DNA of 63,781 bases, filler included, from Collodictyon triciliatum (Eukaryota), in assembly GCA_043381765.1 (NCBI GenBank). It is 23 parts of 23 records of this genome, joined end to end, with 100 filler letters (N's around TTAATTAATTAA, not from the genome) between each part and the next. Parts side by side here need not be neighbours in the genome. Positions count along the whole stretch, not along the records: positions 58,778 to 61,527 come from JBHJMP010008437.1; 22 more parts are not named here. The stretch is one strand, 5' to 3'. Below the pieces are notes generated by a model. That model ran no database searches, had not been told where the DNA came from, and worked only from the letters and a program-made list of their open reading frames with translations. The first letter of the stretch is position 1; each line of letters begins with the position of its first letter. Of the stretch, positions 55,885 to 60,842 are shown piece by piece. The position numbers were made by a program, and so were the translations under genes.

Positions 55885-56242
55885 NNNNNNNNNNNNNNNN
55901 NNNNNNNNNNNNNNNNNNNNNNNNNNNNTTAATTAATTAANNNNNNNNNNNNNNNNNNNNNNNNNNNNNNNNNNNNNNNNNNNNAAAAGAAAAAAAGAAA
56001 AAAAGAAAAAAAGAAAAAAAGAAAAAAAGAAAAAAAGAAAAAAAGAAAAAAAGAAAAAAAAGAAAAAAAGAAAAAAGAAAAAAAGAAAGAAAAAAAAAAG
56101 GAGAACGCAAGAAAACTCCCACCCCTCCCCACCGCGCAACATCTCTAAAACCCCATCGACCATAGCCCACTTTGAATCGAATAAAAAAAAAACAAGCAAA
56201 CACGCAAACAAACAGCCTCACCCACAACAGCCGGCCCCCCAC

Positions 56243-58577
56243 ATGGCAGAACCACGCACCCGCACACCCGCACACACAGCCCCAAACGCTTCTGCACGTC
56301 TCAACACACAGCAGACAAACCCGGAGCCCAAGAAAGGGGCGCTCAAAAAATACACACACACGCTCAAAGGCTGGGACACGCGCATCTTCCACCTGGACGC
56401 CACTGGGTTGTGGTACACACATCCTGGCGAGAGAGACACAACAAAGACGCGCTTCATCCCGCTGCTCAGCGCATCCATCACCGTGTCCACAGAGGACGGC
56501 ACACGCTTCGACATCAAGACACCCACGCACTCATACAAGCTGCGCGCAGCAAACGCACAGGAGCGGCGCCAATGGCTCACGCAACTGCGGCTCACCCAGC
56601 AGCAGCTGCGCATCGCCCATCCAGACCCAGCTTCATCACTTCTCTACGAGCCACCCAGCCGCTCGCCATCCAGTGCGCGGGCCACTTATCCGGGGCCGGG
56701 CATTCTGCGCCCAGTCACCGGCCTGACCGACCCGAGCGCATCGGCCATGCCACTCTCAGCATCAGCATCAGCATCAGCATCTGCCTCCACTACTACCATC
56801 CACACGCTCTCGCACCTGACGCATCAGTCGCCGTCTCAGCTGCACGCACACGAGACGGCCTCTGCCCCGGCCTCGGCGCATTCCTCCTTGGTTGCTCGCC
56901 GCATTCGGGCGCAGGAGTATGCGTTTGCCAAGGAGCTGCAGGAGCTGCAGGAGCTCGCCTGGAAGTCCGGCTCTGCTGACATCTACCAAAAGACCCAGCG
57001 CTTAGCCCAAACGCAGCGTGACTTGCGCGACGCTGTGCAAGAAACCTTGAAAGCCTATCAGAGTGCAGATCTCGATGAGATGCGCTCTGCAAAACCACCG
57101 GTGGCCGTGCAGAGGCAGCCTCAGTCGTCCCCGAGTTTCGCTGTGGAGCGCACAAAGATTTGGACGCAAACCATCCCATATCCGCCCGTCTTGGATATCT
57201 CAGACTCTGCTCGCCCAAAGGAAGGTCGTTACGTCGGTCGGAAATCCTTTGACCTCAGTCAGTCAGGAGGAGAGCTCGACTTTGATTCAGAGTCCCATAG
57301 AAACCCATCGCGCTCTTTTCATCAGAGCACGGCAGACGTCACTCGTCAAGAAGCACTCCATAGCTTCTCAGGGAAGGAAAATAGAGACACCGTCCACACA
57401 AGTCGCGACGCCAGCACAAGAATGGACGCTGGGAGTCCAGACGAAGATGACTCTCTGATTCTGTCCGATATTGACGAAGGAACTGAGGAAGCTGCTCACG
57501 AGGTAATTAAAATCACAAGCAACTCGTTTCTGCCTCGCTCTTTACATGGGATGAACATATGGCGCGACCGGCTGCCAGCTAATCGCCCGTCTGTTCGTGA
57601 GTTTGGGCTGTGGAATATATTCAAGGATGCTGTGGGTAAGGACTTGACTCGGATCACCATTCCCATGATACTATGCGAGCCCATCACGTTTCTACAGCGA
57701 ATCAGTGAGGATATTGAGTACTCTTCAACACTGGACAAGGCAGCAGCCATCGGCAAGACTGACCCATTCCTGCAGCTGGGTTATATCGCAGGGTTTGCCG
57801 TGTCCGTCTACTGCTCGACAGCTGGACGTGTTCTGAAGCCGCTAAATCCGCTGCTTTTTGAAACTTACGAGAGCATTCGCCCAGACAGAGGCTTGATGTT
57901 GATTGCAGAGCAGGTGAGCCACCACCCACCCATCGGTGTGGCCACCTGCATCTCGGATTCTGGCTGGCAACTGACCTATGATTCCGACATGGTAAGTCGC
58001 TTTTGGGGCAAATCCATGGAGATTCGGCCGACCGGCTTGTGCCACTTGCATATCCCAGCCACCAACGACCATTTCTCATGGAACAAAGCACAGGCCAATG
58101 TAAACAACGTACTTCTCTCATCCCGCTGGATCGACTACGAAGGGGATGTCAGAATCAACAACCACCGCACAGGCCATCACTGTGTTCTCCGCTTCGTTCG
58201 CAAAGGCTGGTTTGCCGGGCCCACCTTTGAAGTGAAAGGCCAAGTGTACGATCCGGACGGAACCCCGCGGTTGGATTTATTTGGTGCATGGAACGAGGCT
58301 CTCACAGCATTCCCTACACACCCTAGTAACAGGATGGTGGATTCCCTTGACAAGCTACTGAAGCAGGAGTCCGACCCGAGTGTCCCAATCAATAAGGGCA
58401 CGGTTGTATGGGAGGCCAACGTGCGGCCTCCACATAGTGTCGATCAGTATCAGTTCACGGCTTTGACCATGCAACTCAACGAAATGGATCCAATCTCTAA
58501 GAATGGACTCTGCCCAACCGATGCTCGCCACCGCCCGGACATTCGCGCCTTAGAGGAAGGCGACATGGAAAGAGCCG
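56243..58577 (+). CDS. Oxysterol-binding protein-related protein (PH plus ORD); one 2.3-kb exon, gene continues beyond the contig
   Basis: PH domain KKGALKKYTHTLKGWDTRIF...ERRQWL; ORD motifs GKDLTRITIP, EPITFLQR, KPLNPLLFETYE, EQVSHHPP, PTDARHRPDIRALEEG; donor GTGCGT at 58578. Confidence 0.95.
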
Positions 58578-58777
58578 GTGCGTTACACTTTGACACAAAA
58601 CATCACTTTTTTTTTTTTTTTTAATGCAACCCCCTTACATCATCTTTGGTAAATGTTCAACCATCCTTTTCTTTTCGNNNNNNNNNNNNNNNNNNNNNNN
58701 NNNNNNNNNNNNNNNNNNNNNTTAATTAATTAANNNNNNNNNNNNNNNNNNNNNNNNNNNNNNNNNNNNNNNNNNNN

Positions 58778-58873
<96 letters not shown>

Positions 58874-60071
58874 CCTGCATTTTTTAAAAAATAGCGATAT
58901 GAAAGGTGTAGTGATTGTCATTCATGACAGGAAACCATTCGCAGTTTTTGTTATAGCAAAGGTCCATACATCAATTTTGCTTAATTTTTTGAGTATAGAA
59001 GGCCCTATTATAATAAGACAAAAAAATTGAATGAGAAAAAATTGGAGCCAAAGAGTGATGGAAGGCGATAGAAGAAGGTCATCAGATCAAGGTAACAATC
59101 AGGAAACGAGACTAACTGACCAGAAGCAATCTAAAGAGAGTGTAATGAGGTTAAATTAATCGTCTGGAGCAATCAAGGCTGAGTGCACAATACATATTGT
59201 TGTAAAAAAAAAAAGGGAAAATATGATCTGTAAAAAATGAAGACATAAATACACGAAAATAAAGAAAGCAGAAATTTGATAAAATAACTATGCTTTATGT
59301 GCAATCGTTACGAATACAATTTACCCGAATAAAACTGTGCGGTATCTTTTTCTGGGGATTTGCTCCACTTTACAGCGCATATTACTACAAGATTATCATG
59401 TAGGAAAGCGATGCTTGCTCTGATTGAGCAAAAAAAAAATACTCTATACTATTCGAAACAAAAAATACAAAATAAATAAAAGTAGCAAGTGGATAGAGGA
59501 CAACCTTGATATGTACCGTTCAAATGAAGCAGCAAGACCAATACACAACCAAATAATCTTTAAGCATCAAAGGCTTGTGTCACAAAACCAATATGTTAAC
59601 TATGCATTACCAAAAAGTTATTCATACTTCAATGAGCTATTACAAATAACATATTATTCTGGAGAGACTTAAACATATTACTTTTTTTTTTTTTTGGAAA
59701 AGGCTTGAGAGGAAGCATATTTGTGAGTTGTGAAATAACAATCAGGGAATTTTTTTGCTTTTGTGAGTGTAGATATTGTGATTCGTATTAAAGATAAAAA
59801 GAGTCGAAAATAAAAATAGCGTAGGTGACATATAGAAAAGAAAGTAATCTCATAAGAGACAGAGAAACACATACACAGGAATGCAAATAATTTTCAAATA
59901 AAAGAACGGGTTTACCTCTTCATGAGATATGTCACTAAATGTATAACTATTGGATGTAATTCTAATATGAAGACCCAAATCTATGCAATTCTCGATGGCC
60001 ATGGCATATTCCAAGCTGTTTCGATATAAAATCATCAGTCCGAATACCTACAAACTGGAGAAAATGAGTCG

Positions 60072-60842
60072 TTGGGCCAAAACCATGGCATTATAGACCC
60101 ACCGATAGTCAAAAGCTGGAAGCAAGCCCGTATATCTCAGCTACTCCCGAAACACCGCGCCCTACTTCTCAATATCTCCAAGAGAGAGCTGTGGATAGGC
60201 GCGCGTGTAGTTCATGTAGCAAGACCTCCCCAGAATACACCATTGCCACAGTGGAGACGACTTTATCGAACACACATTTGTGAAGTGCTCTCTTGCTCAA
60301 TAAGTGACAGAATCTACCCAAACAAGATGCTCTCTGAGCTTGATTACGCTCCCAACCGTCTCAGCGCATCTAACATCCTGTTTGGCCCACAATACCAAAT
60401 GACCCACGACTCTAGAATACTCTGGACAGTCACAAGGGGACATATGCTGTGGTTCTTATGGAGTGTGCGTGCATTCTCTCGCTCTAATGATTCACCCGAA
60501 CGAGAAATCAATGTATCCAGGCTTGAGAGCCTCGTGCAATACAGCTTCCTGAACAGCCTGCTGAAACACGCTCGCATTCTTCGCTACTCTGACCGCAAGC
60601 AAAGAGAGATATGGGAATGTGTCGTGCGATATCTCCCACAGCACATCCAACCCCTGCTACCCACTCAACCAATCAACCAGTTGGGACGCCCACCTGACCA
60701 GCTCGCTATCACTGATTTCTTTCCAGTGCTACCCTCTCCACCATAGCGTCTTCTACTCGCGTTTGCTCTCTCCCATGCGCTCCTATTTCGCTTCTTTTTA
60801 TGGCATAACCTTGTTGCACTTTGAATCGAATAAAGGAAAAAA
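60072..60842 (+). mobile_element. 5'-truncated L1/Tx1-like LINE, copy B (ORF2 C-terminus with frameshifted zf-RVT, 3' UTR, A-tail)
   Basis: SWKQARISQLLPKHRALL...LWIGAR; alternate-frame HCHSGDDFIEHTFVKCSLAQ; MLWFLWSVR; ends TTTGAATCGAATAAAGGAAAAAA. A second copy is at 11223. Confidence 0.85.

Follow-up and report, generated by a model that had tools for sequence, protein, structure and literature searches.

The LINE copies and their family

The window analysed here, 63,781 nucleotides of Collodictyon triciliatum DNA, is a string of ~2.7 kb contigs joined by linkers of N, and in it lie pieces of one L1-like LINE family (family 1 below). Copies A and B are fragments on separate small contigs, and both preserve the end of ORF2, where the motif QLAITDFF, a candidate PCNA-binding (PIP) box, stands 7 residues upstream of the stop. 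The features are listed below, with residues of the tail numbered on P0122, an ORF2 fragment of the family.

59985..60842 (+): copy B of L1-like LINE family 1, 5'-truncated and with a decayed 3' end; homology to other copies starts at ~59985
60133..60310 (+): zf-RVT (CCHC zinc finger) region of copy B, frameshifted; limits approximate, projected from PF13966 in copy L002
60666..60746 (+): ORF2 C-terminal tail of copy B (P0122 residues 398-423) and stop; pLDDT under 50, the human-matching fold ending at residue 396
60699..60722 (+): candidate PIP box QLAITDFF (TD type) of copy B, from translation; stop at 60744-60746; conserved across lineages
60747..60842 (+): 3' UTR of copy B, with AATAAA at 60829-60834 and a short A-rich end; other copies end alike
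11223..11479 (+): copy A, a family-1 3' end cut by the contig start; 89.7% identity to copy B over 253 bases
11329..11352 (+): candidate PIP box QLAITDFF of copy A, from translation; stop at 11374-11376
8508..8559 (+): very short family-1 copy, 3' UTR only and no coding part; 90% over 52 bases against the 3' end of copy A

Relative to copy L002 the ORF2 of copy B has four indel sites, three of which recur in a comparison with sequencing contigs, and with its start near 59985 it is therefore a dead fragment. The open frame of copy B itself gave no Pfam match, zf-RVT included; PF13966 (zf-RVT) falls at residues 220-278 of copy L002 (E 1.6e-7), Pfam finds RVT_1 and zf-RVT in family-1 copies, and the order in the longer copies is APE endonuclease, RT, then zf-RVT. 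Copy L044 aligns with a full-length relative over residues 10 to 1200, and a 632-residue frame upstream of ORF2 in copy L212 was not matched to any named ORF1 family. A profile of relatives scores human LINE-1 ORF2p at E 3e-145 versus 9e-52 for R2, and judged by its sequence family 1 is an L1-like LINE, a label that does not separate L1 from Tx1.

A DNA search of the organism's own genome returned 1276 candidates for family 1, 40 of which were scored (88-94% identical). Most copies are 5'-truncated, and they close with a 3' UTR of ~85 bases, AATAAA and a short A run. A crude search for target-site duplications on 15 of 30 loci gave matches of 6-8 bases or none, and the 3' junctions of loci L001-L030 often show a short A run followed by T. 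Copy B, on the contig at 58778-61527, matches locus L005 in its 3' flank, and locus L006 in both truncation point and 5' flank, at 87-89%, a pattern pointing to segmental duplication, inter-copy recombination or allelic contigs. Pieces of family 1 also occur in RNA-library contigs from three freshwater runs, contigs of a kind that cannot show transcription. On locus L064 (7646-9901, minus strand) an LTR-retrotransposon-like pol frame of 752 residues adjoins the breakpoint of a LINE copy. Elsewhere in the window, a short stretch at 56160-56195 resembles the extreme 3' end of the LINE and lies ~50 bases upstream of a PH and oxysterol-binding gene (56243-58624); a 514-residue Gly/Thr/Asn-rich frame at 19885-21429 (+) has no Pfam match above cut-off and appears by eye to be of viral fibre type; and the 168-residue Cys-rich frame beside it, at 21710-22216 (-), is possibly of viral or mobile origin.

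Conservation of the motif at the end of ORF2

An earlier note on this DNA had placed QLAITDFF near the ORF2 stop of both copies, as translation bears out at both positions, and had argued for purifying selection from the fact that all 6 differences between the copies over 37 codons, from YLPQ to PSP, are synonymous. Our recount gives the same figure, 6 of 6. The 50 alignable codons as a whole, however, yield 7 synonymous differences and 4 non-synonymous, with non-synonymous ones standing at both edges of the 37-codon stretch, which was thus favourably cut. None of the 11 differences falls within the 8 codons of the box, so the pair of copies speaks for constraint on the reading frame and tells nothing specific to the box; we have rejected the two-copy count as evidence of that kind.

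The motif itself is unlikely to be an accident of composition. Given the residue composition of ORF2, a canonical box within the last 25 residues has a chance expectation of ~0.001, and of 6e-6 once threonine at position 5 and aspartate or asparagine at position 6 are also required; among 120 unrelated oxysterol-binding proteins, a weak control taken from a single protein family, none has a canonical box in its last 30 residues. A degenerate DNA pattern for the box had 192 exact matches against 0 for controls. A looser DNA pattern gave 53 matches against 17 for controls, and among the 32 of these loci that were examined, the matches with LINE C-terminal homology upstream belong to families 1 and 2 only (family 2 is described below). 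Loci L181 and L186 carry PIP-like strings directly before stops with no LINE homology upstream, which may be chance or the ends of host PCNA partners.

Selection within family 1 was assessed by projecting 37 of the 40 scored copies, together with copy A, onto copy L002. Among singleton changes pN/pS is 0.7-1.1, the level that decay of inserted copies would give; among changes common to at least 4 copies, which we took to mark active source lineages, it falls to 0.03-0.3 across the C-terminal region. Since only the best-scoring copies were used and a few have flanks in common, they are not fully independent and the class of shared variants is inflated. With this limit, the non-synonymous to synonymous ratio at codons 374-416 is 2:10 for shared variants versus 57:20 for singletons (p=2e-4). 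After the box the shared variants of the family are 3 non-synonymous to 1 synonymous. For the box alone the counts are thin, 0:3 shared versus 10:4 among singletons, and the result is borderline (p=0.05). The claim of purifying selection on the box stands in part: the box is conserved in 34 of 38 copies and in diverged lineages, but the family statistics restricted to it do not go beyond that borderline value.

Conservation across lineages is a stronger test of the box than counts within the family. A zf-RVT search of the genome led to two further LINE families, and the ORF2 of one of these, family 2 (48% identical to family 1; 1751 candidates), ends with QFLITDYF followed by 14 residues; three of its copies have Y7C in common and three have D6N. 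A search of representative proteins gave 20 matches. P0125 and P0144 end with QTAITD(F/Y)F and P0130 with QSVITNFF, while P0128, a partial case, has Q, T and FF in register with asparagine at position 4. P0133 and P0145, the latter a cluster mate of P0130, end with no box, probably through frameshifts. The consensus Qxx[ILM]xx[FY][FY] is present in 34 of 38 family-1 copies, 26 of 30 family-2 copies, P0125, P0144 and P0130. The earlier note had held that absence of the motif from related LINEs would speak against it; the box is instead kept in family 2 and in two database lineages.

Only four independent lineages carry the box. They are 38-54% identical to P0122, and they keep Q409, I412, T413 and F416 along with an aromatic residue at 415. 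Compared in pairs, the four are 50-88% identical across the box and 62-76% across the zinc finger, with 0-25% for the 28-residue linker that precedes the box; four of 8 columns are invariant in the box as against none of 28 in the linker, and four of the five invariant columns of the tail lie within the 8 of the box (p=0.0026). Further out there is no terminal box in seven distant relatives at 26-30% identity (six read, plus cluster members), nor at any of 14 distant LINE loci in a metagenome scan. A PIP-like string does occur inside the zinc-finger helix at 9 of those 14 loci, an indication that loose matches are common. A query with a five-sequence alignment found no full-length close relative among 2327 candidates, which is weak evidence.

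Such a pattern could also be produced at the RNA level, if the box were part of a 3' recognition element for ORF2, or by mere recent common descent of the copies. The box lies ~110 bases from the polyadenylation signal, stringent LINEs reportedly recognise the RNA of their 3' tail, and the family copies are ~90% identical. Synonymous variants nevertheless segregate within the box (29:8 at the Q codon, 26:11 at the D codon) and the 3' UTRs of families 1 and 2 are unrelated, both of which argue against RNA constraint; of the 8 bases at each codon position, the two families have 6 in common at the first, 6 at the second and 4 at the third. The linker, moreover, is fully diverged, which bears against both versions. 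We regard this explanation as largely excluded and highly improbable, and selection on the encoded peptide, as a PIP box, remains the preferred reading.

Structure and origin of the tail

An AlphaFold2 model of P0122, a 423-residue fragment of ORF2, was built with 15 sequences and has a mean pLDDT of 80, which drops under 50 for residues 398-423; low pLDDT is only a proxy for disorder. Residues 190-396 superpose on residues 1065-1264 of human ORF2p (Z 16.6, rmsd 3.1, 187 aligned), and the box starts 13 residues past this human-matching fold, at about the point where the 1275-residue human protein ends, so that it appears to sit on an appended tail. The placement of the box in a disordered C-terminal tail after zf-RVT, proposed earlier, thus agrees with the prediction. 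A PDB sequence search with the C-terminal alignment gave no matches.

The segment might instead be an intramolecular packing element of ORF2 whose resemblance to a PIP box is incidental. The model has a short helix at 408-412, modelled from the fragment only, and in human ORF2p the PIP helix is described as packing on the palm and fingers (PMC10830420). Against such packing, no part of the tail reaches a pLDDT of 50, the conserved residues are spaced as in a PIP box, for which a chance match is expected at about 1e-3 or less, and the outgroups end with no box at all, so we consider self-packing very unlikely. A functional PIP box on a flexible tail accords better with these observations.

In a midpoint-rooted tree of 14 rows, the carriers and the partial P0128 form one clade (99/98; 80/97 with P0128 left out), and on these sequences the grouping suggests that the tail was gained once, within one L1-like clade. 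Of the acquisition proposed in the earlier note, the disordered-tail box after zf-RVT and an apparent single gain in one clade hold up; PCNA binding and a coupling to replication are candidate functions. The genome also holds family 3 (locus L081 at G000:C5672, and 20 related loci), whose ORF2 stops right after the last helix; the tail is absent from all 13 copies that cover the stop (20 loci, 193 candidates), and the 3' UTR is ~370 bases long. Because family 3 has spread with no tail, the tail is not needed by all LINEs in the genome, and family 3 is a natural tail-less control alongside the carriers.

For human L1 ORF2p two modes of binding PCNA have been proposed, and the use that the element makes of PCNA is a matter of debate. 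The internal PIP helix of human ORF2p, residues 404-419, also anchors the tower on the palm and fingers according to the structural account (PMC10830420), and because it is structural its mutants are hard to interpret. A 'PUB' site in the wrist (N968, W1011, I1014) has been predicted to bind PCNA, with support from pull-down mutants (PMC7617806), and a review describes the mode used by the human protein as still debated (PMC12503042). The earlier note had human L1 ORF2p bind PCNA through the internal box, a statement now out of date, since the wrist site has been proposed (PMC7617806) and the mode is unsettled (PMC12503042).

The ORF2 of family 1 resembles human ORF2p in joining APE endonuclease, RT and a CCHC C-terminal domain in one ORF2 and in the fold of that C-terminal domain (Z 16.6), and a link with PCNA is proposed in both. 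It differs from the human protein in that the box is on a free tail past the human-matching fold and in that the helix aligned to the human PIP has no glutamine; this helix reads KKN(T/I)Hx(F/S)F in all 14 distinct family-1 copies (22 loci), its first position being K in place of Q. A third difference is found at the wrist, which is helical in the human protein, with 12 helices reported (PMC10830420): the stretch aligned to the distal wrist is modelled here as a small beta-barrel, at P0122 residues 72-144 (L002:2302-2871, minus strand), a mapping that is indirect and relies on a profile alignment and one model. In this one model the barrel matches Tudor, KOW and PWWP domains at Z 5-6, in the range of common folds; its ESM Atlas matches are unnamed short proteins only, and it could bind nucleic acid or chromatin.

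The model and alignments are consistent with a clade that has neither of the human PCNA interfaces. A PIP-aligned helix with no glutamine, together with a wrist stretch modelled as a barrel, leads us to suggest that the tail could be a clamp tether of convergent origin. That the tail strictly replaced the wrist site, one for one, is unsupported, as the barrel-like sequence pattern is found in tail-less relatives too.

Predicted docking on PCNA and known systems

We consider it likely, from the conservation described above, that the tail is a functional TD-type PIP box, appended once in the ancestor of the clade and kept by selection, with a predicted docking site on PCNA. As in known PIP boxes, Q1 and I4 would insert, with the two aromatic residues, into the pocket under the PCNA interdomain loop. 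The host, a divergent intron-bearing eukaryote, has one detected PCNA gene with an ordinary interdomain-loop exon, and the host-type PCNA P0153 matches the first exon of that gene at 95% identity. The short flexible linker might then tether ORF2 to DNA-loaded PCNA, and either bring it to replication or repair intermediates with a nickable target or keep the clamp in place where insertion occurs, for second-strand synthesis and repair; in so doing the tail may fill the role of the human internal PIP helix or wrist PUB site through a different interface. The steps from motif to binding and from binding to function are all inferred. The TD pair, present at positions 5-6 in families 1 and 2 and P0125 and replaced by TN in P0130, is reported to raise affinity for PCNA and to be rare among PIP boxes (PMC3973308), and it favours tight binding. 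Flank charge is approximately neutral in family 1, net -1 in P0125 and basic upstream of the box in family 2. PCNA binding is reported to be favoured by positive flanks, and a canonical motif may prove a false positive (PMC6881253), so that the neutral flanks of family 1 temper the expectation from TD.

The partner of a functional short linear motif need not be PCNA, and other hubs, among them Mlh1 and the C-terminal domain of Rev1, have to be weighed. RIR and MIP motifs are not known to need Q1, I4 or T5. These three, the anchor and affinity positions for PCNA, are among the invariants of the tail, which tells against another hub even though the aromatic pair is conserved, as such a partner would lead one to expect, and even though PIP sequences are described as overlapping RIR and MIP motifs (PMC7225939). 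We judge another partner very improbable.

PCNA might also be bound to a different end, with the tail acting mainly as a PIP degron through which DNA-bound PCNA presents ORF2 to CRL4-Cdt2, so that the protein is destroyed once insertion is done or during S phase. All four lineages keep T5, and family 2 fits the full signature Q-x-x-hydrophobic-T-D-aromatic-aromatic-x-x-x-R as it has been published (PMC3973308), with R or K at +4 in 26 of 30 copies and a basic upstream flank. The +4 residue is basic in only one of the four lineages, however, being P in family 1, H in P0125 and P0144, and P in P0130; no K or R stands there in the window's own family, R being found in family 2 only, and three family-2 copies share Q. 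Degradation as the main role seems very unlikely. The reading of the tail as a docking site for PCNA may be taken further, to a clade with neither human interface that independently evolved a high-affinity C-terminal PIP tether, clamp recruitment being then a convergently selected part of target-primed reverse transcription, and the tether of one sister family having turned into a Cdt2 degron that limits how long the enzyme lasts; we offer this fuller account tentatively, as a possibility that falls well short of even chances.

If the docking reading is right, the lineage would add independent support for selection on clamp binding during LINE retrotransposition, and the distribution of the box suggests that L1-like elements may have found their own route to the host replication and repair machinery. 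As the tail is free and its PIP box clean and removable, it would also offer a handle for separation of function, with the tail-less family 3 of this genome alongside. In the full-text literature, a scope that leaves most subscription journals and Repbase outside, we found no description of a C-terminal PIP box on a LINE ORF2, nor of a beta-barrel at its wrist position. Clamp motifs on mobile-element enzymes are already known, and what is apparently new is the C-terminal PIP box on a LINE ORF2.

Among cellular proteins the nearest likeness is to the TD-type PIP boxes and degrons of p21, Cdt1 and Set8, with which the tail shares Q-x-x-I-T-D-aromatic-aromatic in a predicted disordered segment; unlike them it has the +4 basic residue in family 2 only, and the flanks in family 1 are not basic. 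Among mobile elements, the DNA transposases Pogo, Tigger and Lemi1 are reported to carry PIP boxes, and IS and Tn7 proteins beta-clamp motifs, in a distribution read as convergent (PMC5371812). The LINE tail is like these in placing a short sliding-clamp motif on a mobile-element enzyme and differs from Pogo, Tigger and Lemi1 in the enzyme that bears it, a LINE ORF2 being a target-primed reverse transcriptase.
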